NCBI GenBank assembly: GCA_041550235.1
Contig: JBFEPE010000001.1
Span: 8,003 to 72,002, forward strand
From: Minisyncoccia bacterium
GTDB taxonomy: Bacteria; Patescibacteriota; Minisyncoccia; UBA6257; JAAZHW01
DNA length: 64,000 nt
Direction: 5' to 3'
Shown: one piece after another, positions 17,757 through 64,000 of the stretch
How the letters are laid out: the number at the start of each line of letters is the position of its first letter
How positions within the stretch are numbered: the stretch's first letter is position 1
Translations under genes and position numbers: made by a program
Notes under the pieces: model-generated
Database searches by the model: none
What the model was told of the DNA's origin: nothing
What the model saw: only the letters and a program-made list of their open reading frames with translations

Positions 17757-17800
17757 GGGCTGATGCCTGACCGATGCGGGAAGGTTAAATCTGGCGGTCC

Positions 17801-21840: not shown

Positions 21841-21842
21841 AT

Positions 21843-27425: not shown

Positions 27426-27456
27426 TCTTCTCAAATATTAAAATCTGAAAAAATAT

Positions 27457-27723: not shown

Positions 27724-27748
27724 CCTTAAAAAGCATTACAGATTAGTA

Positions 27749-28660: not shown

Positions 28661-28730
28661 GCACTCTTGGATTTACACTTGACTTTTTGTGTGTTTATGG
28701 TTAATATAGTAAGGGAGGTAAAAATAAAAA

Positions 28731-29326: not shown

Positions 29327-29334
29327 TTAGCACA

Positions 29335-29365
29335 AATCCGTTCTAACTCAGAGCGGATTTTAATT
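29335..29365 (+). terminator. Hairpin terminator
   Basis: aatccgttctaactcagagcggatttt. Confidence 0.5.
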
Positions 29366-29400
29366 TATCTCTTGCCAATAAGAAATTTCGCCGTATAATA

Positions 29401-29592
29401 AAATCAATAATTTAATATGCCTAACCCCTATGATTATTCATAGGGTATGGCGATAAATCCATCCCTGTATTGAGCTCCTCGTTCAGCTTATCAGGGATGG
29501 TCATATTCGGAAACGGATATGGATGATCGCAAGATCGTCAGGTTGGCGGGGAGCTTTGTGTTCCAAGTCAACCACTAAAACCATCCCTAAAT
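29401..29592 (+). ncRNA. Candidate structured cis-regulatory RNA in the 5' leader of the 29593 membrane-protein gene
   Basis: Locally GC-richer. Hairpins ccctatga-ttat-tcataggg; ccatccctg...cagggatgg; tattcg-GAAA-cggata; gatc-GCAA-gatc; ggttg...caacc. A second ccatccc copy abuts the start codon. Confidence 0.4.
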
Positions 29593-30564: not shown

Positions 30565-30705
30565 ACCCCATTTGGCACCAAATTGGCACACGGAAAGGGA
30601 TGAGCCAAAAAACATAGGAATATACTCAAATCAAAGAAACAAGCCCAAAAATTGAAAATTTGCCCTCAAATTCGGCACTCCACAGATATATTTCATTGAT
30701 TTCTA

Positions 30706-30774
30706 CCTCAAGAAGAGTAGTATTAGGAATATATAATATCAGAGGATAATAAATCCCAATACTCTTCTTGAGAT
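30706..30774. promoter_or_regulatory. 18-bp inverted repeat upstream of the R-M operon (possible operator)
   Basis: ctcaagaagagtagtattagg ...30 nt... cccaatactcttcttgag. Confidence 0.35.
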
Positions 30775-30837
30775 AGGGATTAAATTTTTAACAAAATCAT
30801 TGATAAATAGTTAAAAATAAGCGATAATATAGATATT

Positions 30838-34672: not shown

Positions 34673-34681
34673 AGAATTAAA

Positions 34682-36124
34682 ATGCTAAAAAATTTTACAA
34701 CACAATTTAGAGATTTAGGCAAAGAAACATCAATTAGATTTGATTTCAGTTTTATTGATTTTCAAAATACTTTTTTAGTTAAAGATTATTATTCTTTTAG
34801 TGATTTATTTGAAATTAAGGAGAACAACAGAAAGGATATTTCTGAAATAAAGGATGATTTTTACTATTCAGAAATAGGAAATGTTAATAAATTGGGAGAG
34901 GTTGATCCAGTAAAATTAAATTTTGATGAAAAGTCTGAAGAATATTTAGATTATTTTAAGAAAATAGAGAGGGGAGATATTATTGAGGTCGGGGAAGGGG
35001 AAATTCTAATATCAAAAGTTCGTCCTAATCTAAAGAAATATGTTTTTATTGATGATAAAAATAAAGAATATTTTTATACTTCTGCTTTTATTCACTTAAA
35101 ACCAAAAAAATTAAATAAAGTTTTATATTATTCATTAAGAAGTTTATTTTTTGATAATTTAATAGCTATTTCAAGACAGGGCAAAGGTTATCCTACTTTG
35201 AAAAATGAAGATTTATATTACTTAAAATTCAATAAAGAAATGATTGATAAATTAGAAAGTAAAGAAAAAGATATAAATAGCAAAATAATCCCCAATGAAA
35301 ATAAAATTAAGGAATTGAAAGACAAAATAGAAAAACCGCAGGATATAATCAATGAAGTTTTTGCTAATGAATTTAGTTTTGATTTAAAAAAATTTGAGGA
35401 ATTAAAGAAAGAAAATATTTTTTCTGTTAATTTTAGTGATTTTTCTAATTACCACAGCCTAAGATTTGATTTTAAAAACAAGAAATTTTTTCCAATTTTT
35501 GAAGATATTATTTCAAAACTTGATACAATTAGACTAAAAAATATTGTTTTAGAAGATCCGCTTTATGGAGCAAATGAGCCTGCTATTGATGGTGTTGTTG
35601 GTAATGATATAAGATATGTAAGAATAACTGATATAGATGATTTGGGGGAATTAACAAATAACGAATGGAAAACCGCCGAAAATATAGACGAAGTTTATTT
35701 ATTAAAAGATTTAGATTTTCTTTTTGCGAGAAGTGGTAATACGGTCGGTAAAAGTTTTTTATATAATTCAAATAAACACGAAAAATCTATTTTTGCTGGA
35801 TATTTTATAAAATTTAAAATTGATTTTAAAAATTTAAATCAATTATTTTTCCTTTATTATTCAAAATCTTTTATTTTTGAATTATGGAAAAATGGAATTG
35901 TAAGAGTAAAGGGGCAACCAAATATAAATGCTAACGAATATTTAGAACTTCAAATTCCTAATATCCCATTATCTAAACAAAAAGAAATAGTTAAAAAAAT
36001 AAAATCTCGATTAGATAGACAAGAAGAAATCAAAAAAGAAATAGAAAAAGAGAGGGATAAGATAGATAAAATAATTGAAAATGCTATAATACAAACACTT
36101 GAGGGCTATAAGCCCCTGCTCTAA
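34682..36124 (+). CDS. Type I/IIB restriction-modification specificity (HsdS-like) subunit with two target-recognition domains
   Basis: Two TRD signatures (ISRQGKGYPTLKNEDLYYLKF; ARSGNTVGKSFLYN). C-terminal coiled-coil spacer KQKEIVKKIKSRLDRQEEIKKEIEKERDKIDKII. 480 aa. Confidence 0.7.
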   Translation: MLKNFTTQFRDLGKETSIRFDFSFIDFQNTFLVKDYYSFSDLFEIKENNRKDISEIKDDFYYSEIGNVNKLGEVDPVKLNFDEKSEEYLDYFKKIERGDIIEVGEGEILISKVRPNLKKYVFIDDKNKEYFYTSAFIHLKPKKLNKVLYYSLRSLFFDNLIAISRQGKGYPTLKNEDLYYLKFNKEMIDKLESKEKDINSKIIPNENKIKELKDKIEKPQDIINEVFANEFSFDLKKFEELKKENIFSVNFSDFSNYHSLRFDFKNKKFFPIFEDIISKLDTIRLKNIVLEDPLYGANEPAIDGVVGNDIRYVRITDIDDLGELTNNEWKTAENIDEVYLLKDLDFLFARSGNTVGKSFLYNSNKHEKSIFAGYFIKFKIDFKNLNQLFFLYYSKSFIFELWKNGIVRVKGQPNINANEYLELQIPNIPLSKQKEIVKKIKSRLDRQEEIKKEIEKERDKIDKIIENAIIQTLEGYKPLL

Positions 36125-36152
36125 AATTCGGGGTGAGGGTTTTTGTAAAAAT

Positions 36153-37706
36153 ATGAAATTATTATTAGCTGGGCCAGGGACAGGAAAAACAACAAAAATA
36201 AAAGAGATAATTAACTCCAAATCTGAGAAAGATAGGGTTCTTGTTATATCTTTTACTAATGCTACGGTTCAAGATCTTTTAGCCGATTTTCGCAAAGATG
36301 AAATTAACATAGAAGAAAAAGATTGTAGCACTTTACATAAATATGCTCTACGAATTAACCACCAAAAAAAATTACATATTTTGAATGAGTTTGAAAAAAA
36401 GATATTAGAATTTTATGCTAAAAAATTTAATTCTAATTTTGATGATTTATGTAGAACGCTTGGCTGTATAACCTTTGATCAAATGATCATACAAACATCC
36501 GAATATATAAAGTCAAATCCTTTATATCTAAACGAAATTATTGATGATATTGATTTGTTTATTGTTGATGAATACCAAGATTTCAACCTTATTGAAAGAA
36601 ATCTTATTGATCTAATAGCACAAAAAGCAAAAGATGTTTTTGTACTCGGCGATGATGACCAATGTATCTATGATTTCAAGGACGCAAATTCCGATGGCAT
36701 TATTGAGTTGTATAATTCAAAAAATGTTGAAAATGTTTCGCACGATCATATTTGTTATAGATGCCCCGATAAAATAGTCAGTGCTTGTTTTAATCTAATA
36801 AATAAAAACCAAAAGAGAATTAAAAAAGAGTGGAGGCCAAGTGAAAAAGAGGGAGATCTGATATTTAATCAGATATTAACACAACAGGAAACATCAGAAT
36901 ATATTTTGAATGAGATAAATAAAATTAAACAAGATGACCCCACTTCTTCTATTATGATATTATCTTCAGTAAGGTTTGCCGTTGAGGATTTATTAAATTT
37001 TTTTGATGATAACAAAATGGATTATGTTGATTTTTGGAAACCCAAAATGGATTTAGAAAAATTAAAAAGAATTTGGGAAATAAAAATCGTTTTTGGCGAA
37101 AAAAAATTATTAAATCTTTTATTCCTAATACAATTAAGCATTAAAGGAAAAAATAGCCACATAAAAAAGTGTCAAAAAATAATAAATGAAAATTTGGATT
37201 TTGATGATTTATTAGATTTTTCAAAAGAAAACAATTTATTGGGAGATGAAGTTATTAAATTATTTGATACTAAAATATCCTTAGAAGACATTCTAAAGAT
37301 TAAAAAATATGAATTCTTAAGCGATCACATAAGAGAAGAGTTTCTAAAAGAAGATTTAGAAAAATTGACAAAAATTGTATCGGAGCCAGTAGAATTTAAT
37401 CCAAGTGGAATAAATGTATCTTCTATACACAAATCAAAGGGACTACAGGCAGACTATGTTTTTATATTGGGGGTTGTTGAGGGAATAATACCTAATTCTC
37501 TAAAGGGATTAGATACGATTGAGGCTCAAAGAAGATTATTATTTGTTGGAATGAGTAGGGCAAAAAAGAGGCTTTATCTCGTCTCTACCGCTGAATGGGA
37601 TGGCAAATATGTTCATAGGGTTGATAAAAACAAATTTAAGTTTGATCCAAAATCAAGAAAACACTTAGCAAGCTCATCAATTTTTATTTCAGATCTTGAT
37701 TTATAA
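36153..37706 (+). CDS. UvrD/Rep-like superfamily 1 helicase (short, ~517 aa; listed ORF begins 36099)
   Basis: Walker A LLAGPGTGKTT. Motif II FIVDEYQDFN. Motif III VFVLGDDDQCIY. Motif V SSIHKSKGLQADYVFI. Motif VI LLFVGMSRAKKRLYL. Confidence 0.8.
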   Translation: MKLLLAGPGTGKTTKIKEIINSKSEKDRVLVISFTNATVQDLLADFRKDEINIEEKDCSTLHKYALRINHQKKLHILNEFEKKILEFYAKKFNSNFDDLCRTLGCITFDQMIIQTSEYIKSNPLYLNEIIDDIDLFIVDEYQDFNLIERNLIDLIAQKAKDVFVLGDDDQCIYDFKDANSDGIIELYNSKNVENVSHDHICYRCPDKIVSACFNLINKNQKRIKKEWRPSEKEGDLIFNQILTQQETSEYILNEINKIKQDDPTSSIMILSSVRFAVEDLLNFFDDNKMDYVDFWKPKMDLEKLKRIWEIKIVFGEKKLLNLLFLIQLSIKGKNSHIKKCQKIINENLDFDDLLDFSKENNLLGDEVIKLFDTKISLEDILKIKKYEFLSDHIREEFLKEDLEKLTKIVSEPVEFNPSGINVSSIHKSKGLQADYVFILGVVEGIIPNSLKGLDTIEAQRRLLFVGMSRAKKRLYLVSTAEWDGKYVHRVDKNKFKFDPKSRKHLASSSIFISDLDL

Positions 37707-37715
37707 ATAAAAACT

Positions 37716-38603
37716 ATGACAAAAAAAGAGAATGATTTGTTTATAAACGATTTTCCAATGGTAAATTCAGATGAAGAATTAGAAGAATTATCATTACAAT
37801 ACCCAAAATATGATCCATATTATATAGCCAGTGGCTCAATAAAGGACAGAAAAGAGTATTTTGAAAAACTTTGGAAGATTTATAGAAACTATGCTGATAA
37901 GCATTTTTTGAAAGAAGTTAAAACCAATTTTCATCAGAGGAGTTGGGAGATGTATTTATCTAATTTATTTATTGAAAATGGATTTGAAATTTCCTCTAAA
38001 GATAAGGGGCCTGATATAAAAATTGATTTGGGAGATAGGAATTTATGGATAGAATGCGTGGCTTCAAAAAAAGGCGAGAAATCTGATAAGGTTCCAGATA
38101 TGATGTATGAGGTTGTTCAAGATGTGCCAGCAGATAAAATGTTATTAAGAATAACCAACTCAATAGATAAAAAATTTAAGAAATATCAAAAATATGTGAA
38201 AGACAGCATAATAAAAAAAGGGGATTATTATATTATTGCTGTGAATGCCGGAGGGTTTGGATATATTGTTGATACAGATATGCCTTTAATTCTTAAATGT
38301 TTAATTTCTATTGGTTTTTGGAGTTATAAAAAATTAGAAGATGGATCATTTAGTAAGCCATTTCTTAGCAGGAGAGAATATATAGAAAAACAAAACAAGA
38401 AAAAAGTAAAAATGAATTATTTTGAAGATAAGAAATATAATGGAATTAGCGGAGTTATCTATACTCCAAACAATGTTCTAAATTTAAGAGATAAAGATGA
38501 TTGTATATTTATTAGCAATCCCTTGGCTAAAAATGAGTTGCCAAAAAGTTATTTACCATTTATTCGTGAAGTCAAAATAACAAAAGATAAAATAATTTTT
38601 TAA
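37716..38603 (+). CDS. Hypothetical protein with possible PD-(D/E)XK nuclease core
   Basis: GPDIKIDLGDRNLWIECVASKKG resembles a D...E.K active-site arrangement. Otherwise unrecognised. Confidence 0.4.
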   Translation: MTKKENDLFINDFPMVNSDEELEELSLQYPKYDPYYIASGSIKDRKEYFEKLWKIYRNYADKHFLKEVKTNFHQRSWEMYLSNLFIENGFEISSKDKGPDIKIDLGDRNLWIECVASKKGEKSDKVPDMMYEVVQDVPADKMLLRITNSIDKKFKKYQKYVKDSIIKKGDYYIIAVNAGGFGYIVDTDMPLILKCLISIGFWSYKKLEDGSFSKPFLSRREYIEKQNKKKVKMNYFEDKKYNGISGVIYTPNNVLNLRDKDDCIFISNPLAKNELPKSYLPFIREVKITKDKIIF

Positions 38604-38612
38604 TACGAAAAT

Positions 38613-39065
38613 ATGATAAAAATAAGAAACAAAAAAATTGAAGTTTTGGTTGCCTATACTACTCCCGAAATGTGGGATGCTGTTGAAGATACAAAAATAG
38701 CAGTTCAGGGCCAAAGTGCCAAAGACGCTGATTATTTTGCTTTTGCGAGAATGGGATTAAAAGAAAATAAAGGAAGAGCGATAATTACTCATATTGCCGA
38801 AATTGGCAAAACAAAATCAAATGTTCCAGTTGAAGAATATATTAAAAAATTTCCTAAATTATCAGAATACTTTAGAAAAAGAAATTGGAATGGTTTTAGT
38901 AAGGAATACTATTTAGAGAATATCCGAGAATTAAAAAATCCCATTTATCATAAAATAGGCGACAAAGCCAAGGGAAGAGTAAGATTTTATACAAATTTGA
39001 ATGAGTTAAAAAATGCTAATTTTATGAGGGATATTAAAACATTAAGTCAGTTAAATAAAAGATAA
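38613..39065 (+). CDS. Hypothetical protein (150 aa)
   Basis: Tightly linked within the operon (10-nt gap). No family recognised. Confidence 0.4.
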   Translation: MIKIRNKKIEVLVAYTTPEMWDAVEDTKIAVQGQSAKDADYFAFARMGLKENKGRAIITHIAEIGKTKSNVPVEEYIKKFPKLSEYFRKRNWNGFSKEYYLENIRELKNPIYHKIGDKAKGRVRFYTNLNELKNANFMRDIKTLSQLNKR

Positions 39066-39321
39066 AAATATGGTAGTTTATTATGGTCCGCCAGATATGA
39101 GCGGGATTGAAAAAGAAATAGAGAAATCAAATTCTTCATCTACTCGTTATAACAAGAAAATGCTTTGGGTGGCTGTGGCAACTTTGATTTTTACCATTAT
39201 CGCAGTGGCTATAAGTGCTTATTTAATACTTTGATTTTTTCAATAATTGGTTTAGAAATTTTATTGTTAGAATTTTTATTAAAGTTGAAAATCATAAAGA
39301 AATTAAAAAACATTAAAAACT

Positions 39322-41454
39322 ATGGAAATATCACAATTATTATCAGCAATAAACAAAAAAGAAATAGTCGTTCCTGAGTTCCAAAGAGAATATGTTTGGA
39401 GATTAGAACAAGCAAAAGAATTGATGACTTCTCTGTTTAAGGATTATCCAACAGGAAGTATTTTAGTTTGGCCAACAAATAAACCGCCAAAGATAAAAAA
39501 CAATGCTGTTGATATTAAAGATATTGGGACGGTTAGGGTTTTATTAGATGGCCAACAGAGATTAACCACTTTATATCTCTTAATTAAAGGACAAATTCCG
39601 CCATATTACAGAGAAGACGACATAACGAATGATCCAAGACATTTATATTTCAATTTAGAAACAGGAGATTTCAACTACTATCAAAAACAAAAAATGGAAG
39701 GGAACTCTTTTTGGAAAAGAGTTGTTGATTGTTTCAATGATGATTTTGATATTTTTTCTTTGGAAAATGATATAAAAGAAAAAGGTGGAGATTTTTCTGA
39801 ATTAGGGAGAAAAATAAACAATAACATTGGAAAATTAAAAAGTATTTTAAGAGAAGATTATCATATTCAACAAGTTCCCGATGGGGTAGAAATTGATGAA
39901 GCTATTGATATTTTTGATAGAGTTAATTCAAAAGGAACAAAACTTACTGATGCCGAGCTTGTTTTAACTCATATCGCTGGAAAATGGCCGGAAGTTAGAG
40001 AGAAGATGAAAGAAAGCATAAGAGAATATAGAAAAACTGGTTTTGATTTTAGTTTAGATTTTCTAACAAGATGTATGACAATAATTATTACCAAATCAGC
40101 CCTCTTTGAAAAAATGAATGATGAGATTTATAAGAATACAAGAGAAGAAGATTATAAAGAAAAATGGAAAAATCTAACCAAGATATTTAATTATTTGCTT
40201 CCAATCTTAAAAGAAAATGGTTATATAAACGGAAGTGGAGATTTAAGCACTAATAATGTTTTAGTTCCAATAGTTGCCTATATTTCTCAAAATTCTTTTT
40301 CTTTTCCAAATACTCCAATTAGAAACTATTTCTTATACTGGATGTTTTTGGCTTCTGTTTGGGGCCGATATAGTAGCCGAACCGACCAAAGTTTAGACAG
40401 AGATGTTTATCTTGCTATAAACAGCCAAAATCCGATAGATGACTTACTTAAAGAAATAGAAGACCAAAGGGGAAGATTAGAGGTAAAACAAGCAGATTTA
40501 GAAGGGAGAGGATCGGCACACCCGCTCTATAAAATGCTTGGAATTTTGGCTCGGTATAATAAGGCGATTGACTGGAAGAATGGCGGATCTCTCAATGAAA
40601 CATTAGGAGAAGAATATGCTATTCATAGTCATCATATTTTTCCACAAGGTCTTTTATATAAAAATGGATATACTTCCGATAATCATTTAGATAAAAAAAT
40701 TGTTAATGAGATAGCAAATAGGGCTTTTATAACAAGAGATGCCAACCTTGATATTTCAGACAAGAAACCGCTTGATTATCTAAGAGAAATAAAGAAAAAA
40801 TATCCCGAAGCTCTAAAACAGCAATTTATACCTGAATTTGAAAATTTATGGGATATAGGCAAATTTAGAGATTTTTTGGCCGAAAGAAGAATTTTAATAG
40901 CTCAATCTATAAATGATTTTCTTGATAATCTAAAAGCTGAAGGTGAAAAGATAGAGATTGATAGAGTTGATTATGAAAAGATTATAGAAAGAGGAGAAGA
41001 CAATTACATAGAGTTCAAATCTTCTTTAAGGTGGGATATGAATAGAAATACAACTAACTCAGATTTAAAAAAAGAAATAGCCAAAGCAATGTCAGCCTTT
41101 ATGAATACGGAAGGAGGCAGATTATTTATTGGAGTTAATGATGAGGGTGAAATTTTAGGATTAGATAATGATTATAAGACATTAGGAACACGACAAAATA
41201 AAGACGGATTTCTTCAAAAAATGGATCAGGTAGTTGAAAATTACTTAGGAAGGGAATTTTTTGAGTATATTAGCATTAAGATAATAAAAATAGATGATAA
41301 GGATGTCTGTTTAGTTGAATTAACTAATAGCGGAAAACCTGTCTATCTGAAATTAAAAGACAAAGAGGAGTTTTATATTAGGGGATCAGCCTCTTCTCGT
41401 CCATTAAGTTTGAGTGAAGCCAATGAATATATTAAAAATCATTCTTGGGAATAA
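39322..41454 (+). CDS. GmrSD-like Type IV restriction-type protein: DUF262 (ParB-like NTPase/nuclease) + DUF1524 (His-Me/HNH) + C-terminal Schlafen/AlbA_2 domain
   Basis: N-terminal VVPEFQREYVW (DUF262). Central EYAIHSHHIFPQGLL...NRAFITRDANLDISDK (DUF1524). C-terminal IEFKSSLRWD...AFMNTEGGRLFIGVNDEGEILGL (AlbA_2). Confidence 0.75.
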   Translation: MEISQLLSAINKKEIVVPEFQREYVWRLEQAKELMTSLFKDYPTGSILVWPTNKPPKIKNNAVDIKDIGTVRVLLDGQQRLTTLYLLIKGQIPPYYREDDITNDPRHLYFNLETGDFNYYQKQKMEGNSFWKRVVDCFNDDFDIFSLENDIKEKGGDFSELGRKINNNIGKLKSILREDYHIQQVPDGVEIDEAIDIFDRVNSKGTKLTDAELVLTHIAGKWPEVREKMKESIREYRKTGFDFSLDFLTRCMTIIITKSALFEKMNDEIYKNTREEDYKEKWKNLTKIFNYLLPILKENGYINGSGDLSTNNVLVPIVAYISQNSFSFPNTPIRNYFLYWMFLASVWGRYSSRTDQSLDRDVYLAINSQNPIDDLLKEIEDQRGRLEVKQADLEGRGSAHPLYKMLGILARYNKAIDWKNGGSLNETLGEEYAIHSHHIFPQGLLYKNGYTSDNHLDKKIVNEIANRAFITRDANLDISDKKPLDYLREIKKKYPEALKQQFIPEFENLWDIGKFRDFLAERRILIAQSINDFLDNLKAEGEKIEIDRVDYEKIIERGEDNYIEFKSSLRWDMNRNTTNSDLKKEIAKAMSAFMNTEGGRLFIGVNDEGEILGLDNDYKTLGTRQNKDGFLQKMDQVVENYLGREFFEYISIKIIKIDDKDVCLVELTNSGKPVYLKLKDKEEFYIRGSASSRPLSLSEANEYIKNHSWE

Positions 41455-41690
41455 TTATGCTATCAAAATAAGAAACAAAAAATTTTATCAAAAAGCATAT
41501 AGGGATAATTTTGATGAAGAAATTATTAGAAAAGAAATAGGCAAAACAGGTGTTAGAATAACCAATTTATTTGAGAGAGTTTTTGGCCTATTTAAATTAA
41601 AATAAATAGAATAGAATGGATTATTATTGAGAGAAAAGAATTAAAAAACTGATAATTGAAACCAGTTTTTAATACTCCGAAATTAAACCA

Positions 41691-42575
41691 TCAGTCATCA
41701 TCCACCAAATCAGTCTCAAAAATCGCATAAATCGGATAATGGTCTGAAATGTCTTCAATCAAATCTTGGTCCGTAATCCCGTATTCTTGGTCAAAGTAAA
41801 AGACACTGGCTGTATTGGTTGAGTATTCAGAGAAATAAGTGTCTGCCTTCATAACAATCCGGTCATAAGTCCAGTCGGTTTTAGTCATTGTATCCATATC
41901 ATTACTGATTACCCAGTAATGATTTATTGTTTTGAAGGGATTTGTTGTTGTATTTTCATCAAAATAACTTCCATCGGCATTAAAGTCTCCCATTACAATA
42001 ATATCTTTTTCATTGGGATTTTGAGAAAGAATATAATTATATACATCTTCTAAATGGGCTATTTCTCTGTTTGTATCATCGGGTTTAGTGTGAATCCCTG
42101 CTAATGTAAAATCAAAATCTCCACTTCTGAAAGAAGCAATATATGGTTCTCTCTCAAAAACATTTCTTATGTCATTATAGATATAATCAGAGCCAGTAAT
42201 AAAATTTACCTTGTCTGTATTATAGAAGTAAGCATAAGATTCTTTACTATTTGTTCTTCCTACCCCCTCGCTTTTTACAAAGGCATATTTATCAGAGCCA
42301 ATATCTTCATTTATCTTTTCTAAATAATAATCTGCTGTTTCTTCTTGGGCATCTCTTATTTCCTGAACCAACATAATATCAAATTCTTGAGCTATTTTAA
42401 CTAATTGCTCCATTACTTCGGGCTTATTTCTTTTTGTTTCCCCAAATATCTGAATGTTAAAAGCCCCCACCTTGATTGGACCGGGAAGAGTAGATTGACT
42501 TGTTCCAAAGAATACAAGAACTCCAGCCAAAATTGCTGGAATTATGATTTTTAATAATTTTTTGATATTAAACAT
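41691..42575 (-). CDS. Secreted/membrane-anchored endonuclease-exonuclease-phosphatase (DNase I-like) family nuclease
   Basis: N-terminal signal/TM. EEP motifs GAFNIQIFG, MLVQE, GIHTKP, GDFNA and SDHYP. Confidence 0.75.
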   Translation of the reverse strand: MFNIKKLLKIIIPAILAGVLVFFGTSQSTLPGPIKVGAFNIQIFGETKRNKPEVMEQLVKIAQEFDIMLVQEIRDAQEETADYYLEKINEDIGSDKYAFVKSEGVGRTNSKESYAYFYNTDKVNFITGSDYIYNDIRNVFEREPYIASFRSGDFDFTLAGIHTKPDDTNREIAHLEDVYNYILSQNPNEKDIIVMGDFNADGSYFDENTTTNPFKTINHYWVISNDMDTMTKTDWTYDRIVMKADTYFSEYSTNTASVFYFDQEYGITDQDLIEDISDHYPIYAIFETDLVDDD

Positions 42576-42581
42576 AACTTT

Positions 42582-42815
42582 TTAATGAATTCTATCTCTT
42601 GGTGGCATTGGATCTTTCCCATAACTATCTTTATCCTGTATTTTTCCATCTTTCCCGTGAATTATATGTTCTACTTCATCTTTTTTGGCTTGTTTAATGG
42701 ATGCTTTTATTGCCCGATCTTTTGTTGAATGAGAAGAAAGAGGGGTTTTTCTTCCTTCTTGGATTGTTCGCCACCCTCCATCCTTATATGTTGTGTGAAT
42801 GTTTTTCTTAGGCAT
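42582..42815 (-). CDS. Small hypothetical protein (DUF2188-like?)
   Basis: YKDGGWRTIQEG...AIKASIKQAKKD resembles small KGGW proteins. Weak. Confidence 0.35.
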   Translation of the reverse strand: MPKKNIHTTYKDGGWRTIQEGRKTPLSSHSTKDRAIKASIKQAKKDEVEHIIHGKDGKIQDKDSYGKDPMPPRDRIH

Positions 42816-42936
42816 AATTTTTATTTAATTAACGACCTTTGTAAAAATCCGAAAACTGAATTACTTCCGATTTTTATAAATCCTTGAATTAGATTTGCTT
42901 TTATTATATCAGAATTAGTGTTAAAGTTAAACCAAT

Positions 42937-43131
42937 ATGCTAACAGATAAAGAAATAGATGATTTTATTGAGTTATACAAGAAAAAATTTGGAAAAGAAA
43001 TTGGCAGAGAAGAGGCGATTAGAAAAGGGGCAAAATTAGTTCGGCTTGTAGAAGCTATTTTGAAACCTAAAGATAGTAATCCTAAAAAAGCGGAACATAT
43101 TATTGATGAAAGCCACAAAAAACCTATTTAA
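42937..43131 (+). CDS. Small hypothetical protein (64 aa), possible DNA-binding
   Basis: Helical, basic. Located upstream of the iteron-like repeats. Confidence 0.3.
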   Translation: MLTDKEIDDFIELYKKKFGKEIGREEAIRKGAKLVRLVEAILKPKDSNPKKAEHIIDESHKKPI

Positions 43132-43169
43132 TAAATGGGTTTTTGTTTATTTTTTATGATAAAAGTAAT

Positions 43170-43465
43170 AAAAAAATGCTGGCTACTACTGGCTACGCGA
43201 GGGGGTAATGACAAAAAATACTTAAATTTTTAAGTGATTGGGAAAACTTAATATCAAAACCTAAAAAAGCAAGTAAATAAAAGGTTTTTTCTATTTTTTA
43301 GGTCAAAATAATTATCAAAAAAATGATGGCTACTAATGGCTACAAGAAGGGATTATAAAATAAAAAATCTTGGAAAATCTTGGAAATTTGAGGGGGTATG
43401 ACAACATAGGTAGTGCTGTTTTTTTGTTTGCCCTATTGATTTTTTAGGGTAAAATAAGGTTATAA
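43170..43465. repeat. Two ~140-bp tandem units each with paired TGGCTAC iteron-like direct repeats spaced 10 bp
   Basis: tggctactactggctac (43180-43196) and tggctactaatggctac (43326-43342). Further shared blocks gggggta(a)tgacaa and tttt(t)agg(g)t(c/a)aaataa. Confidence 0.65.
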
Positions 43466-43480
43466 TTTTGTTAACAAAAA

Positions 43481-44308
43481 ATGAAAGATAATAAAGAAAA
43501 CAAAAAATCCTATTTAACTCAAGGAGATAAGAAATTATTGATATCTTTTAGAAGATTTTTGAAAAGAGAGCCAGTTTTATTAAAAATTCAAGATTTAAGA
43601 AAGAAATATGATATACCAAAAAATGGATTAAAAAAGAATGAAGTTTTTAAGCCAAATGAAGATGGATATCAAATCTATGTGGGAGATTTTGATTTTCCAA
43701 TCAGGATTGATTTTAATTCCGCCCTTAGAAAAGATATTAAAGAATATCTTCTTGAAGAATTTCCTGTAAAATCTAATTTTATTATACATCTAACGAAGAT
43801 GTTTATTTTGTATAACAACATTGATGATTATATAGATTTTGATAAATCCAAAGAAGAAGTTGATTTAGAATTATTTAACATATTTGATTTAGTTGATGAT
43901 ATGGAGATAGGTTATGATGTTATGAATGATCGTGATGCTGGGACTGGTCAAATTCACGGCTTTATTGAAGAAATAATGAATAGAGGAATGGAATATCCAA
44001 TTTCAATAGGAATACCAAACGGAGCCACTAAAAGGGATTTATTAGAATATATAAAGAAAAATTGGAATAAAATTGAAAAATTAAGAAATTCCAAAAAAGA
44101 AAATAAAAAATGGTTAGCCGTAAGAAAAAGTAATCCCGAGATTGAGAGAAGAGATGATTTTATTTATAAGCATAGAAAAAAATCATTAAAAGAAATAAAG
44201 GATTTAGTTATAGAAAAATTTGAAGGAAGTTTAGATGGCGATAGAAGGATTTTATATACTTGGCAAATTAAAAATATAATTGATAGAGAAAAGAAAAAAA
44301 GGAGCTAA
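43481..44308 (+). CDS. Hypothetical protein (275 aa) upstream of second integrase
   Basis: No family recognised. Lys-rich termini. Confidence 0.45.
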   Translation: MKDNKENKKSYLTQGDKKLLISFRRFLKREPVLLKIQDLRKKYDIPKNGLKKNEVFKPNEDGYQIYVGDFDFPIRIDFNSALRKDIKEYLLEEFPVKSNFIIHLTKMFILYNNIDDYIDFDKSKEEVDLELFNIFDLVDDMEIGYDVMNDRDAGTGQIHGFIEEIMNRGMEYPISIGIPNGATKRDLLEYIKKNWNKIEKLRNSKKENKKWLAVRKSNPEIERRDDFIYKHRKKSLKEIKDLVIEKFEGSLDGDRRILYTWQIKNIIDREKKKRS

Positions 44309-44417
44309 GTGTATCACACTTAGTTTTTAGTGCCATTTCGTTTTATTTCTTAAAATCTGGTTAATAATCAGATTTTTTTATTTTTCAAGAAATATCTGAT
44401 TTAAGATTTTAGGAAAT

Positions 44418-45344
44418 ATGAAAGATCTATTTGAACAATTTATAAAACAGCAAGAATATGTTGAAAGGAAAAGAAAAAAGACGATAGAAAATTATCGGCA
44501 GAATTTTAATTTATTGTTTGGCTTTAAGCCTGATTTGAAATTGGAAGATTTAACCGAAGAAACAATGATTGATTTCTTTGAGTATCTTGATACAAGGGAA
44601 AGAAGGGTCGGAAAGAAAATGATTGTTAGAAAAATTAAAAATTCCAGTATCGCCACAATAAGAGGAAAATTAGAGGTATTTTTTAGGTGGTTAGTTGATA
44701 GGGAGCATATCAAATCTAATCCATTTGAAAAAATACCATACCCGGAAGTTTCCTACACAAGCAAAGAGGCTTTCACGAAAGAGGAATTTGATAAAATTTT
44801 TATAAACATCGTTAGAGATATTAAATGGGTCAATGATTTTTTGCGAAAAAGAAACACAGCAATGATAATGACTTTAGTATTAACTGGGATAAGAAGAGAA
44901 GAGTTATTAGAATTAAAGCTGTCTGATATTGATTGGAAGAATAAAAAAATAACAATTAGAGATGAAACTTCTAAATCTAAAAGAACAAGAACTATTCCTA
45001 TGTCGCCAGATTTGAGGCCATTTTTAGAGGATTATTTAATAACCAGAACTAATAAGAAAAATAGTTTTCTTTGGGTCAATGGCAGAGATGAAAAATTTAC
45101 TGAACACGGCTGGAAGCATCTTGTTAAAAAACTAAAAGAAGAAACAGAAACTAATTTCCGCACCCATAGATTTAGACATACATTTGCTTGTAATTATTAT
45201 CGGCAGAGAAAAGATCCGGTTGGATTACAAAAAATGATGGGACATCAAGATATTAAAACTACTTTTAAGGTATATTTGCGATCCATAGATGATGATGATT
45301 TAACAAAAGAAATGAATAAATTTAAGATTTCTAAGTTTTATTAA
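44418..45344 (+). CDS. Tyrosine site-specific recombinase/integrase (second copy, divergent from 27749)
   Basis: HRFRHTFACNYYRQRKDPVGLQKMMGHQDIKTTFKVYL. N-terminal SAM-like core-binding domain. 308 aa. Confidence 0.9.
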   Translation: MKDLFEQFIKQQEYVERKRKKTIENYRQNFNLLFGFKPDLKLEDLTEETMIDFFEYLDTRERRVGKKMIVRKIKNSSIATIRGKLEVFFRWLVDREHIKSNPFEKIPYPEVSYTSKEAFTKEEFDKIFINIVRDIKWVNDFLRKRNTAMIMTLVLTGIRREELLELKLSDIDWKNKKITIRDETSKSKRTRTIPMSPDLRPFLEDYLITRTNKKNSFLWVNGRDEKFTEHGWKHLVKKLKEETETNFRTHRFRHTFACNYYRQRKDPVGLQKMMGHQDIKTTFKVYLRSIDDDDLTKEMNKFKISKFY

Positions 45345-45550
45345 AAATGGTCTTGCTAAAGTAAAATGTATCCGCTATTATTGAAGCATCTTAACAATTA
45401 AACAGCTTTTCTTTTTTGCTTTTTAGGGTCTTTTTTCCAAATGAGCGAAATTGGTAAATGGGTCGTGCTAAAAACCAAGTGTTTTGAGTGAAAATCCCCA
45501 TTTTATCAGGTTTTATCGGCATTTTTAGAGAAAAAGGGTGGAGCTGTTTA

Positions 45551-45592
45551 ATGGTAAGGAGTAGGTCAGCGGTTCAAGTCCGCTCATTGGCT
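45551..45592 (+). pseudogene. 3' half of the split tRNA-Thr(GGT) gene
   Basis: atggtaa-ggagt-aggtc-agcgg-ttcaagt-ccgct-cattggc-t. Complements the 5' half at 27457-27494 (gccaatg/cattggc, actcc/ggagt). Confidence 0.75.
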
Positions 45593-45599
45593 CTTTTAG

Positions 45600-45625
45600 A
45601 GAGATTGATTAAATCTCTTTTTTTG
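45600..45625 (+). terminator. Hairpin terminator after the tRNA 3' half
   Basis: agagattgattaaatctct + ttttttg. Confidence 0.45.
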
Positions 45626-45636
45626 TTTTTCTTTTA

Positions 45637-45716
45637 AAAATATGTTAAAATATATACATATTTAGAGGGCAAAAGCCCCTGCTCTGAATCTTTGGGGTAG
45701 GGGTTTTAATATAAAT
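45637..45716 (+). repeat. Copy 1 of a ~50-bp direct repeat plus hairpin cassette (second copy at 48282-48371; partial third at 36101-36152)
   Basis: aaaaatatgttaaaatatatacatatttagagggcaaaagcccctgctct...ggggtaggggtttt...atATG. Confidence 0.75.
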
Positions 45717-46928
45717 ATGAACAAAGATATATCTAAAATTTTTATACCAAAACTTACATATAATGAGTTATCTTTTGTTAAAGGGAAGGGGGTTCCAGCA
45801 ATAATAATGGATGCTTATTTAGTTGCTTATAGAAAAAAAGTTGCTGATAAAATCAGACAGGAAACAAGTTTGTTTATCATTGATCCTAATACCAATTATT
45901 TTGTTGATGATTATTGTAAGAAAAAACCTAGTTTTAAAAGTTTATCAACTACCCCAAAGAAACCATATAAAATAGATGAATTATTGACCGATGAAGGAGT
46001 TAGAAAATACGAAATGGTTTTAAATAATATTAGAAATCAGATAAATAACAATGCTGGATTAATAATATTGCCTTATTTATATATGGACAGCATAGATGAT
46101 GTTAAATTTAATTTAAATTTAACGATGATTAGTGATGGTTTGAGAGTTATAAAAGATAATAAAATAAAATACCCGACATATGCAATGATTAATATAGGTA
46201 ATAATATTTTTAATGATTATTCTAAAATAGATTTCTTAATAGGAAGATATTTTGTTGATTTCAAAAATGAATTAGACGGATATTTTGTAATGATAAACAA
46301 TTTTGATTGTCGCAGAGCTAGTAAAGAGGAGTTATTGGGATTAGCATATTTAACTTTTCGTTTATCAGGAAAAAAGGATCTTTATTTTTTGAAGATGGGA
46401 GATTATGGAGAAATTCTTTGTAGTATAGGTGCTACTGGTTATAGTAGTAGTTTGGCTGGAGGCGAAACTTTTAATGCAGACAATTTATCTAAGAAAAAAA
46501 TAGGAAAGATTTTTGGTAGGAATCATAAGGAAATAACTTATGTAGCTGAATTATTTATTTATCTAAATGATGAGATTTTAAAGAAGATAAAGTATTCTTG
46601 CGATTGTGAAGTTTGTAAAGGCAATATCCCAAGCAGCTGGAATGATACGAGGATGCATTTTCTCAATAGAAAATTAATGGCGATAGAGGAATTAAATAAG
46701 ATAGAAGATGGTGAAAAAATTAAATTTATGATTTCTAAAATAAATAATTCTATTGAACAAGTCGCTGAATATAATTCAAAATTTGCCCCCTTGTCAATTA
46801 AAGCAGATTTTCTTTTGAAATGGAAGCAAGTTTTAAAAGAAGTAATAAATTGGAAAGACGATGACTCAAAGAAAGTTGATACGATTGATTTAGATAAAAT
46901 TATAGAGGAGGCACGAAAATCTCAATGA
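45717..46928 (+). CDS. Hypothetical protein (403 aa) with tRNA-guanine-transglycosylase-like motifs
   Basis: VMINNFDCRR (cf. TGT catalytic xMFDCV) and SCDCEVCKG (CxCxxC zinc subdomain) followed by H 15 aa later. Otherwise unrecognised. Confidence 0.45.
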   Translation: MNKDISKIFIPKLTYNELSFVKGKGVPAIIMDAYLVAYRKKVADKIRQETSLFIIDPNTNYFVDDYCKKKPSFKSLSTTPKKPYKIDELLTDEGVRKYEMVLNNIRNQINNNAGLIILPYLYMDSIDDVKFNLNLTMISDGLRVIKDNKIKYPTYAMINIGNNIFNDYSKIDFLIGRYFVDFKNELDGYFVMINNFDCRRASKEELLGLAYLTFRLSGKKDLYFLKMGDYGEILCSIGATGYSSSLAGGETFNADNLSKKKIGKIFGRNHKEITYVAELFIYLNDEILKKIKYSCDCEVCKGNIPSSWNDTRMHFLNRKLMAIEELNKIEDGEKIKFMISKINNSIEQVAEYNSKFAPLSIKADFLLKWKQVLKEVINWKDDDSKKVDTIDLDKIIEEARKSQ

Positions 46929-47371
46929 ATATAGTCCCCGATACTAATTTGTTATTAAAGGGATTATTGTTTAGGGGTGATGCTAGACAAATAATCAATT
47001 TAGCTTATTCAAAAAAAATAAACCTTTATGGGAGTAAGGGCTCTTTTGAGGAGATAAAGAGAGTCGTTTATTATAAAAATTTTAAAAAATATCTTGAAAA
47101 AGAAATTTATACGCCAGAGAAATTAATTGTTTCTTATAGATCATTAATTAATATAGCTACAATAAACAAAAATTATAAAGATTTGAAAGTTGTAAAAGAT
47201 GATCCAGACGATGATGAATTCTTAAAAATAGCAAAGACAATAGAATCGCAGATCATAATATCTAGCGATAAGCATTTAAGAAGAATCGAAAAATATGATG
47301 ATATCAGAATAATAGAGCCAGAGATTTTTATTAAAATTTACCCTAAAATATTAGGCAGAAAATTCATTTAA
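46925..47371 (+). CDS. PIN-domain nuclease
   Basis: MNIVPDTNLLL (first acidic residue), DDPDDDEFL, ISSDKHL. Start overlaps the upstream gene (ATGA). Confidence 0.7.
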   Translation: MNIVPDTNLLLKGLLFRGDARQIINLAYSKKINLYGSKGSFEEIKRVVYYKNFKKYLEKEIYTPEKLIVSYRSLINIATINKNYKDLKVVKDDPDDDEFLKIAKTIESQIIISSDKHLRRIEKYDDIRIIEPEIFIKIYPKILGRKFI

Positions 47372-48022
47372 TATTTTTTTGTTTAATATTGATTCAGCCG
47401 CTAAATTAAATTTATATTTGTTTAGTGCTTTTTTTGGTTTAAGATTTGTGATCTCAAGTCCTTTATTTTCAAGATTTAATATTATTAATCCAATTTCATG
47501 TTTTTCTAACAATTTCTTATCTATAAGGTGTTCCTGAGATGATGGCATAGCTAAATATACTTTATTAGCAAATGATTTATATCTATTGGCTTGAAGTATG
47601 CCTCTTTTCCAGTTTTTTAGTTTAGCTTCTATAGCAATTATCTCCTTAGCAATGGGCATCCACCCATTTATTTTATAATAATATTGATCGTCAATTATTT
47701 TAATGAAATTATCATCTTGTAGTTTTTTTAAATATTTATACTTCAGTGTATTTCTTGATATTTTTAATCTATTGATAATAAATTCTATATCCACCTTTTT
47801 TCTTTTTCCCATTTCTGGCAAAAGATCAAATATTCTAAAATAATCTTCATTTTCGATTGATTTATATTGTTTATGATTCTTTCTTATTAAACAATTATTA
47901 GAGTCGAGCTTAAATAACACTAAATCAGCTATACCATAACCAACCCCAACTTCCCTTTTGGTTAGATAGCCATTTTTAGACAACTCTTTTTCTAGCAAGG
48001 AGACAAAATATTTTTCTGTCAT
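47351..48022 (-). CDS. PD-(D/E)XK nuclease-family protein (Mrr/Hjc-like core)
   Basis: GYGIADLVLF...IAIEAKLKNWKRGILQANRY shows a D / E-x-K / Q-x-x-R-Y arrangement. 223 aa. Confidence 0.5.
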   Translation of the reverse strand: MTEKYFVSLLEKELSKNGYLTKREVGVGYGIADLVLFKLDSNNCLIRKNHKQYKSIENEDYFRIFDLLPEMGKRKKVDIEFIINRLKISRNTLKYKYLKKLQDDNFIKIIDDQYYYKINGWMPIAKEIIAIEAKLKNWKRGILQANRYKSFANKVYLAMPSSQEHLIDKKLLEKHEIGLIILNLENKGLEITNLKPKKALNKYKFNLAAESILNKKILNEFSA

Positions 48023-48281
48023 ATTAATATTATACTATAATAATAGATTTAATGACATACTTACTCTTAAATAGTGAAAGACGGCGAGCAATCTTGTCGC
48101 TTTGTTGATTTAATAATACCATAATTAAAGATAATATAAAGTCTAAAATTCCAGAAGTAATTATTTAGAGAATTAAGCATTCAAAAATTTAGTATTTTTA
48201 ATATTATATAGATTGCTTTTTATTGTCAGATTTTTTATTTATCAAATTTGCCATAATAATACAGGCAAATTTATTTTATTT

Positions 48282-48371
48282 AAAAATATGTTAAAATATA
48301 TAAATATTTAGAGGGCAAAAGCCCCTGCTCTATTTGTGTCGAGATGGGGCTTTTATTATTAAATTAAAAAT
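48282..48371 (+). repeat. Copy 2 of the direct repeat plus hairpin cassette
   Basis: aaaaatatgttaaaatatataaatatttagagggcaaaagcccctgctct; perfect stem aaaagcccc/ggggctttt, then attattaaattaaaaatATG. Confidence 0.75.
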
Positions 48372-48677
48372 ATGAATTATTATAATTTAGAAAACAGAAA
48401 AATATTGGGTGGCATTCTTGTTGTTATCTCATTAGTAATCTTTTTCTCAATTATTGGTGGAAATAATAATATAGCATCCAATCAAATTAAAAATGACAAT
48501 CAATTTAGAAGTGAATTAAAAAATTGTTTAGAAAAGGTAGATGAAATATACAATACAGCAAAATTAATGAGATCGTCAATTTATGAGCAATACAATTTTT
48601 CTAAGAAAGAGAAGGATGAATATGTAAGGATAATGGAAGAATCAAGGCAAAAAGATGTGGGGCAATGTTATGAATAA
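48372..48677 (+). CDS. Small membrane-anchored hypothetical protein (101 aa)
   Basis: N-terminal TM ILGGILVVISLVIFFSIIGG. Confidence 0.4.
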   Translation: MNYYNLENRKILGGILVVISLVIFFSIIGGNNNIASNQIKNDNQFRSELKNCLEKVDEIYNTAKLMRSSIYEQYNFSKKEKDEYVRIMEESRQKDVGQCYE

Positions 48678-48701
48678 TATGAATTATTATATCAAAACAA
48701 T

Positions 48702-48932
48702 TTGGGGGCAGTAATAATCTTGACTTTAATCATACCCTTATATATACTTTGGTATATGAATACAAATACTAAAAATAAAACCATTCTAAATATAAAAACG
48801 GATAAGGGGTTAAAAGGGCCATCAAAAATGCTAAAAGAGATTATTAAAAAAGCCAATGAAGATTATAAAAAGGGGGATGTTTTTGGTCCTTTTGATAATG
48901 TCAAAGATCTTGTTAAAAGTTTAGAATCGTAA
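48702..48932 (+). CDS. Small membrane hypothetical protein (76 aa)
   Basis: N-terminal TM. No family recognised. Confidence 0.3.
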   Translation: MGAVIILTLIIPLYILWYMNTNTKNKTILNIKTDKGLKGPSKMLKEIIKKANEDYKKGDVFGPFDNVKDLVKSLES

Positions 48933-49040
48933 TTTTATGAGTTTTTTGAATAAAATTTTGTTTTAAGTGGCTTGATTTATGGGATATATAATATAATATA
49001 AGAACACTCATAGTGTTATGAGGTTTGTTATAATTAGAAA

Positions 49041-50615
49041 ATGGATGCAGATATAAATTACCTAAAAATTGGTAAGGCAAGCGAAATAAAAAACAGGAAA
49101 GATAGGCGAATCTTTCGTTTTTTTGAGATATTGCCGGGGGCACTATCATGGCTCACTCTAATCCTTATATTCATTATTTCTTGGCTCTACCCAATATGGG
49201 CAGTTGTTTTTGTTGTCTTATTTGATACATATTGGTTTTTTAAAACATTATTTTTTACAATCCATGCCGTTCATACATTCAAAATTTTAAGAAAAAGTTT
49301 AAAAACAGATTGGTTGATAGAGTTAAAAAATCTGCCAAAAGAAAAGTATAATTCACAAGGGATATCTTCTTGGGAGGATATATATCACCTTATTATATTC
49401 CCAATGGTTATTGAGGAATATGAAGTTGTGCGAGAAACATTTTTGGCGATAGAAAAATCAAATTATCCATTGGAAAAATTAATAGTTGTTCTCGCTTATG
49501 AGGAGAGAAAAGAAAATCATGGAAAAGAAGTGGTAGAAAAGATAAAAGATGAGTTTGGTAATAAATTCTTCAAATTATTAATAACAAAACATCCTGATGG
49601 AATAGAGGGGGAATTAGCAGGCAAGGGGGCCAATGAGACATGGGCGGCAAGAAGAGCCAAGGAAGAGATAATTGATGAGTTGAAAATACCATATGAAAGG
49701 GTTGTTGTATCCTCATTTGATGTTGATACTGCAATTTCTCCAAACTATTTCGCCTGTCTTTCATATAGATATCTCACTGCAAAAAATCCTCTTCGCTCAA
49801 GCTTTCAGCCAATCCCATTTTTTACAAATAATATTTGGCAAGCCCCAGCATTAGCAAGGGTTATTTCTTTTTCTGCAACATTTTTTCAATTCATTCAGCA
49901 ATCTAGACCAGAAAAAATGACTACTTTTTCTTCACATTCTATGCCCTTTGCATCTTTGGTAGAAATAGATTTTTGGCAGACAAATGTAGTGAGCGAAGAT
50001 TCCCGAATTTTTTGGCAATTTTATCTTTTTTATAATGGAGATTGGGAGGTAGTCCCTCTTTTCTACCCGGTTAATATGGATGCGAATGTTGATAGAACAT
50101 TTTGGGGAACAATGGTGAATCAATATAAGCAACAAAGGAGGTGGGGATATGGTGCTCATGATTTGGCATATATATTTTTTGGATTTACAAAGAACAAGAA
50201 AATTTCTTTAAAAGATAAGTTGTCTTGGGGTTTTGTGGCATTAGAAGGATTCTACTCATGGGCGACGAGTGCCTTGATTATTTTTCTTTTAGGTTGGTTG
50301 CCTAATATTTTAGGTGGAGCAAGATTCAGCACCACGATTATTTCATTCAATCTACCAAAAATAACTAGTTATATAATGACTGCTGCTACGGTTGGTTTAA
50401 TTATTATGGCAATATTAAGTTTTTGGTTTTTGCCACCTCGTCCTCCAAGATTTGGAAAATTTAGATATGTTTGGATGGTTCTTCAGTGGATATTTGTTCC
50501 TGTGGCGATGATTGTTTTTGGTTGTATTCCGGCACTGGAAGCTCAAACAAGATTAATATTTGGAAAATATATGGGATTTTGGCCCACCCCAAAGCATAGG
50601 CAAGCGGACGAATAG
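49041..50615 (+). CDS. Processive family-2 glycosyltransferase (cellulose/chitin-synthase-like) integral membrane protein
   Basis: DxD (SSFDVDT), SEDSRIF and QQRRWGYG (QxxRW). Multiple TM helices at both ends. Confidence 0.75.
   Translation: MDADINYLKIGKASEIKNRKDRRIFRFFEILPGALSWLTLILIFIISWLYPIWAVVFVVLFDTYWFFKTLFFTIHAVHTFKILRKSLKTDWLIELKNLPKEKYNSQGISSWEDIYHLIIFPMVIEEYEVVRETFLAIEKSNYPLEKLIVVLAYEERKENHGKEVVEKIKDEFGNKFFKLLITKHPDGIEGELAGKGANETWAARRAKEEIIDELKIPYERVVVSSFDVDTAISPNYFACLSYRYLTAKNPLRSSFQPIPFFTNNIWQAPALARVISFSATFFQFIQQSRPEKMTTFSSHSMPFASLVEIDFWQTNVVSEDSRIFWQFYLFYNGDWEVVPLFYPVNMDANVDRTFWGTMVNQYKQQRRWGYGAHDLAYIFFGFTKNKKISLKDKLSWGFVALEGFYSWATSALIIFLLGWLPNILGGARFSTTIISFNLPKITSYIMTAATVGLIIMAILSFWFLPPRPPRFGKFRYVWMVLQWIFVPVAMIVFGCIPALEAQTRLIFGKYMGFWPTPKHRQADE

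Positions 50616-63729: not shown

Positions 63730-64000
<271 letters not shown>

Follow-up and report, generated by a model that had tools for sequence, protein, structure and literature searches.

To our knowledge, proteins with the fold of tRNA-guanine transglycosylases (TGTs) have few known roles in prokaryotic immunity: DpdA marks self DNA, Cap10 handles a base-protein conjugate, and a role is predicted in BREX-related systems, all of these depending on 7-deazaguanine chemistry. The zinc subdomain of TGTs is used on nucleic acid. TGTs and DpdA share an invariant zinc site and three invariant Asp residues, one of which is the general acid/base Asp (Zm D102, E. coli D89, DpdA D95) (PMC10164549). 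Cap10 of type IV CBASS (PDB 9NTN) has lost the zinc site and has kept the base-reading Asp/Ser residues together with the Asp nucleophile, D248 (bioRxiv 10.1101/2025.04.06.647259). Here, we analyzed a locus of three genes, denoted A, B, and C, in a stretch of 64,000 nucleotides (nt) from a Minisyncoccia bacterium (contig JBFEPE010000001.1, positions 8,003 to 72,002), referred to as the window, in which all coordinates below are counted unless a relative locus is named. Protein A is a strongly diverged member of the TGT superfamily at the fold level and displays the pattern opposite to that of Cap10, i.e., it keeps the zinc site and has lost the base-reading Asp; B and C are nucleases. In our judgment, the chances are about even that the three genes form one conserved conflict (defence-type) module based on a remodelled TGT-fold enzyme and located in defence islands and beside restriction-modification (RM) operons. 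The basis of this assessment is the fold, the conserved residues, the gene linkage over 11 loci and across changes of gene order, and the island context. An earlier reading made from the letters of the DNA (the sequence-only reading) knew of no toxin-antitoxin or defence architecture that pairs a TGT-like protein with a PIN nuclease; indeed, the architecture is conserved, and no description of a TGT-like, PIN, and PD-(D/E)XK combination was found in a partial literature library, one elsewhere being possible.

Gene A (45717-46928, plus strand) encodes a TIM-barrel protein of 403 amino acids (aa) with a zinc site of the Cys3-His type and a helical domain at its C terminus. It is followed on the same strand by gene B (46925-47371, 148 aa), the start codon of which overlaps the stop codon of A by 4 nt (ATGA, 46925-46928). 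The minus strand carries gene C (47351-48022, 223 aa), which runs towards B and overlaps it by 21 nt at the 3' ends (47351-47371). The list of open reading frames (ORFs) of the window contains no small ORF between A and B and no recombinase gene inside the module. The translational coupling of A and B, the PIN domain of B, and the convergent PD-(D/E)XK nuclease had all been proposed in the sequence-only reading, and all three were borne out by the comparisons described below.

Using single-sequence and profile searches, we found no match for A in Pfam, NCBIfam, PADLOC, PHROGs, or the PDB sequences, apart from a weak match to PHA01746 below the cutoff; the PF01702 and NCBIfam Tgt models gave no match at E<=1. 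In the Foldseek search with A, E<=1e-3 was reached by TGTs only, and the (beta/alpha)8 barrel of A is of the TGT type, with scores over those of generic TIM barrels, so that the TGT-like fold suspected in the sequence-only reading was recovered by structure search. Compared to bacterial Tgt (PDB 3UNT/2PWU; PF01702), A is 11-13% identical and carries an extra C-terminal helical domain, and whereas the genomic context of Tgt consists of queA/yajC-type housekeeping genes, that of A consists of islands and nucleases. A word-indexed search yielded 20 relatives of A, and an exhaustive profile search yielded 458 representative clusters at E<=1e-3, 59 of them at E<=1e-30. The distribution of the family is patchy over several phyla and always in islands; the source names include Patescibacteria and Parcubacteria, Elusimicrobia, Omnitrophota, a Paludibacteraceae genome, and metagenome-assembled genomes labelled Gammaproteobacteria. 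PF01702 was matched by no relative scanned, and five distant relatives without a kinase domain matched no Pfam family at E<=0.1.

The active sites were compared by aligning a profile of the A family (120 representatives at 50% identity or less) to E. coli Tgt with hhalign; it should be noted that the Tgt comparison profile included only sequences at least 83% identical, resulting in a weaker profile-profile alignment. In the colinear alignment, FIPK of A corresponds to FMPVGT of Tgt, GYFV to GYAVGG, YFLKMG to YLMGVG, GGE250TF to MFD264CV with the nucleophile (Zm D280), and CDCEVC to CDCYTC; IID56PNT is placed opposite LTD89SGG with the acid/base residue (Zm D102) in a low-confidence global alignment. 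The zinc site C-x-C-x2-C (C295, C297, and C300) and H314 are invariant in 19 A-family sequences, the Cys triplet aligns with the zinc site of Tgt, and the Cys and His residues are kept in 100-118 of the 120 representatives. D56, located in a DPxT motif at a strand end, is Asp in 101/120 representatives and Asn in 12/120, and both D56 and P57 are present in all 21 fusions of A relatives to a kinase (21/21). Position 250 is occupied by a carboxylate in 103/120 representatives (Glu in 90, Asp in 13), and P57 (118/120), T59 (107/120), Q108 (110/120), and P119 (118/120) are conserved as well. Altogether, the best-conserved positions of A are D56, P57, T59, Q108, P119, E/D250, Y275, and the Cys3-His site, and the motifs D56-P57-x-T59 and P119-Y120 are kept.

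Conversely, two of the residues that define TGT chemistry are not found in A. The invariant nucleophile Asp of TGTs (MFDCV) is not kept, the aligned residue being E250, still a carboxylate. The base-recognizing Asp (Zm D156, DpdA D130, Cap10 D122) has no equivalent in A, either in the hhalign alignment or among the 120 representatives: the strand opposite the guanine-reading Asp reads LIILPYLY, with the invariant P119-Y120 and no conserved acid; hhalign leaves a gap opposite the Tgt motif FDEC; and D124 of A is acidic in only 63/120 representatives. The sequence-only reading rested its TGT assignment on two short motifs, of which the zinc knuckle stood and the FDC motif did not. FDC (residues 196-198) aligns with the GGLAVGE loop of Tgt and is variable in the family (FNG, FDG, FDS, and GDC in relatives); therefore, the match of FDC to the catalytic motif is coincidental. 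Likewise, a search for the catalytic Asp residues, which that reading had recommended, was answered in part, with carboxylates at the aligned D56 and E250 positions, Glu in place of the nucleophile Asp, and the base-reading Asp absent. Since A retains the zinc subdomain and two carboxylates but has a rebuilt base pocket, we place it in the TGT superfamily at the fold level only and do not class it among the TGT or DpdA enzymes.

Protein B matches PIN_3 (PF13470, E 8.7e-14, 52.8 bits versus a cutoff of 27) and TIGR00305 (E 1.2e-14, 54.6 bits versus a cutoff of 29.15). Its acidic residues are invariant in 10 loci, namely, the N-terminal Asp (D6), the Glu after an invariant Gly-Ser, the D-x-DDD cluster, and the C-terminal Asp of the SSDKH motif. 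Protein C, which matched no Pfam or PDB entry significantly by sequence, is a PD-(D/E)XK nuclease of the restriction-endonuclease-like fold with D33, E132-x-K134, and Q144; the fold resembles PaqCI, HindIII, and FokI-type domains, and the nuclease triad is invariant in 42 sequences. The nuclease domains of NucS/EndoMS, XisH-like proteins, and type IIS restriction enzymes have the fold and the D...ExK motif in common with C; however, C carries a winged-helix domain inserted within the nuclease core, at about residues 55-118, between its first and second halves.

A survey of the neighbourhood had been proposed in the sequence-only reading; the A-B-C trio was found with the same geometry at 11 further loci, in which the identity of A goes down to 31%. 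Among the relative loci recovered (labelled L001 etc.), identical geometry is listed for L001, L003, L004, L008, L009, and L013-L016, as well as for the window. In every trio locus recovered, A and B overlap or are at most 5 nt apart, and C is convergent, with a 3' overlap of 18-24 nt with the PIN gene. This conserved overlap (for example, 47351-47371 in the window, 7614-7634 in L001, and 9614-9637 in L013) could be a means of antisense or transcriptional-interference control, or mere compaction. Complete type I RM operons are located directly upstream of the trio and co-directionally in L013 and L007/8; the trio of L003 has a type I R-like gene, a IIG methylase, and Mrr as neighbours, and a type IIG enzyme and a type II RM pair are found next to the trios of L009/10 and L016, respectively. 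Tyrosine integrases or serine recombinases are encoded near the trio in L001/2, L004-6, L007/8, and L011.

The linkage also extends to loci with other partners and other gene orders. In 21 representatives (P0192, P0198, P0205, and 18 others), a Ser/Thr kinase domain precedes the TGT-like domain in the same polypeptide, and a convergent homolog of C is kept both in L011 (801-2804), where the kinase is fused, and in L103 (2343-4359), where it is split (hhalign 99.9%). In L099/L100, a Panacea-like gene, a PIN_3 gene, a 129-aa homolog of C without the winged helix (hhalign 98.3%), and an A-like gene are all located on one strand; a 222-aa gene of L099 was also considered as the C homolog and was rejected (hhalign probability 0.3%). 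In L101 (891-3169) and L104/L105 (4001-6266), a distant A-like gene lies beside a divergent pair consisting of a RES-domain toxin gene and a small antitoxin-like gene; L101 additionally carries a SNIPE/T5orf172 nuclease gene two genes downstream. The A-C linkage thus survives both sequence divergence and change of gene order, which argues strongly for a joint function of A and C, in most cases together with a toxic effector. Genes for preQ0 synthesis (QueC, QueD, QueE), DpdB (a ParB-like ATPase), DpdC, DpdD-K, and a transporter were not seen in the loci inspected, among their called, annotated, or scanned genes; a Pfam scan of 29 window ORFs showed no queuosine, preQ0, or Dpd genes, so that the check for such genes suggested in the sequence-only reading came back empty for the window; and CD-NTase and Cap9 (QueC-like) genes are absent from all neighbourhoods listed.

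For the substrate and catalysis of the module, the sequence of events, and a possible defence phenotype, we infer the following scheme from the conserved residues and gene contexts. Protein A would bind nucleic acid through its TGT-type zinc subdomain and would attack an N-glycosidic bond using D56, in the general acid/base position, and E250, in the nucleophile position. The result would be the excision or exchange of a base other than guanine or preQ0, the target most likely being invader DNA. Protein C, the putative obligate partner with its own winged-helix DNA-binding domain and a NucS/restriction-like core, would then cut at or near the lesion. Protein B, translationally coupled to A, would be a swappable toxic effector, as the Ser/Thr kinase replaces PIN in relatives in which C is retained. 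The frequent setting in RM operons would fit, and here we speculate, a layer directed against invaders that evade classical restriction through their base modifications.

Several observations weigh against the proposal of an active conflict module. The residue-level alignment of A to Tgt is weak (hhalign probability 25%, P 7.5e-4), yet it is colinear along the whole protein. Because Glu occupies the nucleophile position, in which Asp is invariant in TGT, DpdA, and Cap10, and because D56 is replaced by Asn in about 10% of the representatives, A could be a non-catalytic binder, as QTRT2 is. No homolog of C was found near the distant A relatives in L101 and L104. None of the PADLOC models matched A or C, which gives the proposal no support, although this is expected of a new system. 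Finally, no relatives of A were found in phage and plasmid collections (tblastn) or in viral contigs (pattern scan), and thus nothing ties the module to a known target.

It is also conceivable that A is simply an unusual antitoxin, because PIN_3/TIGR00305 proteins are usually toxins of two-gene toxin-antitoxin pairs. Under this explanation, the trio is a toxin-antitoxin or abortive infection system in which PIN acts as the toxin and A, whose catalysis would not matter, as a large antitoxin or sensor that holds it; C would regulate through its winged helix, and its nuclease would be vestigial or secondary. As in VapBC-type pairs, B has intact acidic residues, and its gene is located downstream of the partner gene and overlaps it; the ATGA coupling, the name of TIGR00305 (toxin-antitoxin toxin component), the interchange of PIN and kinase effectors, the RES toxin pairs adjoining some A relatives, and the Panacea-like gene beside PIN_3 in L099 are all in accord with such a role. 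Nevertheless, the upstream partner of B is a 403-aa enzyme-like TIM barrel rather than a small DNA-binding antitoxin, and a third, convergent nuclease gene is always present in the trio. Furthermore, conservation in A is highest where it aligns with the catalytic and zinc positions of TGTs (DPxT, E250, and Cys3His) rather than on a surface patch, the nuclease triad of C shows the invariance described above, and the RES pairs are complete toxin-antitoxin modules on their own, so that their adjacency may be mere co-location in islands. We therefore consider this explanation unlikely. A Dpd-like RM system, in which A puts a modified base into host DNA by transglycosylation, C restricts unmodified incoming DNA, and PIN is an accessory effector, appears rather unlikely, the TGT/DpdA fold of A with its zinc site and the likeness of C to restriction endonucleases notwithstanding. 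It also speaks for this explanation that type II RM systems often contain convergent gene pairs that overlap. Precedents exist in DpdA (PMC10164549) and in a TGT of BREX-related systems (PMC12839542). Compared to DpdA, the DNA-guanine transglycosylase of the Dpd RM system (PDB 7UI4; PMC10164549), A yields no sequence-profile match, is not accompanied by DpdB, DpdC, or preQ0 genes, lacks an equivalent of the base-reading D130, and has Glu in place of the Asp nucleophile (D256), and its partners are PIN and PD-(D/E)XK-winged-helix nucleases instead of the DpdD-K helicases and nucleases. In addition, the kinase swap and the PIN toxin are unexpected for a modification enzyme. The sequence-only reading had considered insertion of 7-deazaguanines into DNA by a DpdA-like protein; such an activity is unlikely because the guanine-recognizing Asp is missing from A and no 7-deazaguanine genes accompany the module in the loci inspected. 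With regard to type IV CBASS, CD-NTase and Cap9 (QueC) genes would be expected beside the TGT-like gene, and the A loci have neither. That A is a housekeeping tRNA-guanine transglycosylase or another tRNA-modifying enzyme with unrelated nucleases as neighbours is extremely improbable: the fold is common to tRNA-modifying TGTs and the module lies close to a tRNA gene remnant, but the failure to match the Tgt models, the patchy distribution in islands, and the strict linkage of A to B and C contradict this explanation, and the remnant belongs to the integration site of the adjoining island.

The trio is bracketed by two near-identical direct repeats (45628-45710 and 48274-48356, 83% identity over 83 nt), as the sequence-only reading had noticed. 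The core at 45637-45685 is the same as that at 48283-48331 but for one base (C/A), the second coordinate of that reading having been off by one. No such pair was obtained in 100 shuffles. The same reading took the repeats for boundaries of the module, and they might be the attL and attR sites of a 2.6-kb cassette without its own integrase that inserted downstream of tRNA-Thr and is moved in trans by the neighbouring tyrosine integrase. Such an origin would account for the identity in 55/58 nt with sharp borders at 45685/48331 and flanks that differ on both sides, for the bracketing of exactly the unit that moves between genomes, for the integrase gene located 280 nt upstream, and for a crossover point inside a hairpin whose 5' arm is within the identical core and whose 3' arms differ between the copies yet both pair. 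However, a third, diverged copy is present at 36078-36152 before an unrelated gene; each of the three copies has a -10-like element and stops just short of an ATG; five other trio loci have no such flanking repeats; a search of metagenome contigs did not recover the exact core; and there is no recombinase inside the module. No empty site was found either, synteny being lost in the relatives of the downstream gene for a 524-aa protein (at most 65% identical). Thus, mobile ends are quite unlikely, and on this point the sequence-only reading did not hold. Of the two grounds for refutation that it had named, the one on the repeats applies and the one on the TGT fold does not.

Instead, we read the repeats as a promoter and structured hairpin-leader cassette that is reused before several plus-strand genes. 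The first copy (45628-45710, plus strand) contains a putative extended -10 element, TGTTAAAAT (45643-45651), which was found by eye and was not reported by the consensus scan, followed by a small hairpin, GAGGGCAAAAGCCC, a 16-bp hairpin, and a T-run, and ends 6 nt before the ATG of A; the RNA fold of the repeat copy has -27 kcal/mol and a z of -4.3. The second copy (48274-48356, plus strand), with a T-run after the hairpin and a terminator-like match at 48327-48350, ends 15 nt before the ATG of a 101-aa ORF (48372-48677). The third copy (36078-36152, plus strand) has the same parts, TGCTATAAT, GAGGGCTATAAGCCC, the hairpin CCCCTGCTCT..GGGGTGAGGG, and TTTTTGTAAAAAT, is roughly 70% similar, and directly precedes the ATG at 36153. 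We read this ATG, rather than the TTG at 36099 reported by the ORF finder, as the true start of the UvrD-like helicase gene, because the Walker A motif comes at once after it. The near-identity of the two repeats around the trio shows recent duplication or gene conversion. Copy 1 would drive A and copy 2 the next plus-strand gene, and in this sense the repeats would delimit the module here. Upstream of gene C, a promoter-like site is located on the minus strand at 48029-48058 (ATGTCA, 18 nt, TATAAT), with 10/12 matches to the consensus as its only mark.

Other repeats are present in the window. A second long direct-repeat pair (15345-15451 and 17800-17905; 53 identical nt and 58 nt at 79%), with the copies 2455 nt apart, brackets another short segment, each copy holding the inverted repeat CCCCAGCCCCAGTTTTT...AAAAACTGGGGCTGGGG. 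Several families of GC-rich hairpin repeats occupy many intergenic sites (e.g., 6172, 12110, 14925, 21132, 21723-21846, 56303, 56759, 59590, 59800, and 63732-63874) in a genome of otherwise roughly 30% GC. One hairpin type (…GGCGGGCGAAGAAAAAATATG) is found directly before the start codons at 21843, 56784, and 59824; hence, leaders made of a hairpin plus AAATATG seem to be general in this genome.

The trio lies just outside the 3' half of a tRNA gene, as had been stated in the sequence-only reading. The segment 45552-45596 (plus strand) is 91% identical to 27683-27727, i.e., the 3' 45 nt of the intact tRNA-Thr(GGT) at 27651-27725; the two have an exact 26-mer in common that is found at those two places only, and ARAGORN calls no tRNA at 45552-45596. 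Accordingly, an integrated element of about 18 kb spans 27.7-45.6 kb (window 27651-45596), with the intact tRNA on the left and the 45-nt fragment as the right-hand attachment-site remnant, and the trio segment, which is outside this element, starts 32 nt past its right end. The element is a defence island, and the trio is at its edge. The island contains one tyrosine integrase at each end (27749-28660 and 44418-45344), a type IIG RM-like gene (30838), a KAP NTPase (33200), a 480-aa gene with no assigned family followed by the UvrD-like helicase, a pair that is possibly Gabija-like, a GmrSD_N-Schlafen/AlbA_2 protein (39322), and an EEP nuclease (41691, minus strand). A search to the right of the trio for a third tRNA-Thr fragment, as expected of tandem island accretion, found none. 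Three tandem 104-nt units (27113-27435; 95% and 70% identity to the first) lie directly upstream of tRNA-Thr. To the right of the trio, relatives (L017-L022, at most 65% identical) of the 524-aa membrane-protein gene (49041-50615) are directly preceded by tRNA-Arg(CCG), and in the window, 48372-49040 contains two small ORFs (101 and 76 aa) and no tRNA-Arg(CCG) before that gene; because of this replacement, the whole 45.6-49.0 kb stretch may be variable. The GC content of the trio (0.27-0.29) is slightly under that of the backbone and is not discriminating. The Rfam scan of 45300-48400 produced one sub-threshold match only (HPnc0260, minus strand, E 0.03, 40 bits versus a 59-bit cutoff), which was taken as chance in AT-rich DNA. 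The remaining window is housekeeping chromosome, with DnaB, aminoacyl-tRNA synthetases, Mur ligases, and RpoB.

A broader proposal, which we regard as possible but doubtful, is that the trio is the founding example of a class of defence systems. In such systems, a TGT-fold enzyme without 7-deazaguanine chemistry would remove or exchange a base of the invader ("base-excision restriction"), the lesion would be passed to a dedicated PD-(D/E)XK-winged-helix nuclease, and interchangeable toxins (PIN RNase, Ser/Thr kinase, possibly RES) would provide a second, abortive layer. The class would be commonest among Patescibacteria and other uncultured lineages, and in many cases it would be integrated into RM operons. 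The A family keeps the TGT fold and the zinc site, has a different base pocket, is found without 7-deazaguanine genes in the loci inspected, and is hard-wired to two nucleases or a kinase. If active, it would represent a new enzymatic principle in phage defence and possibly a new base-editing or glycosylase activity on nucleic acid, and this addition would fall in candidate-phyla bacteria, whose immune repertoire is poorly charted.

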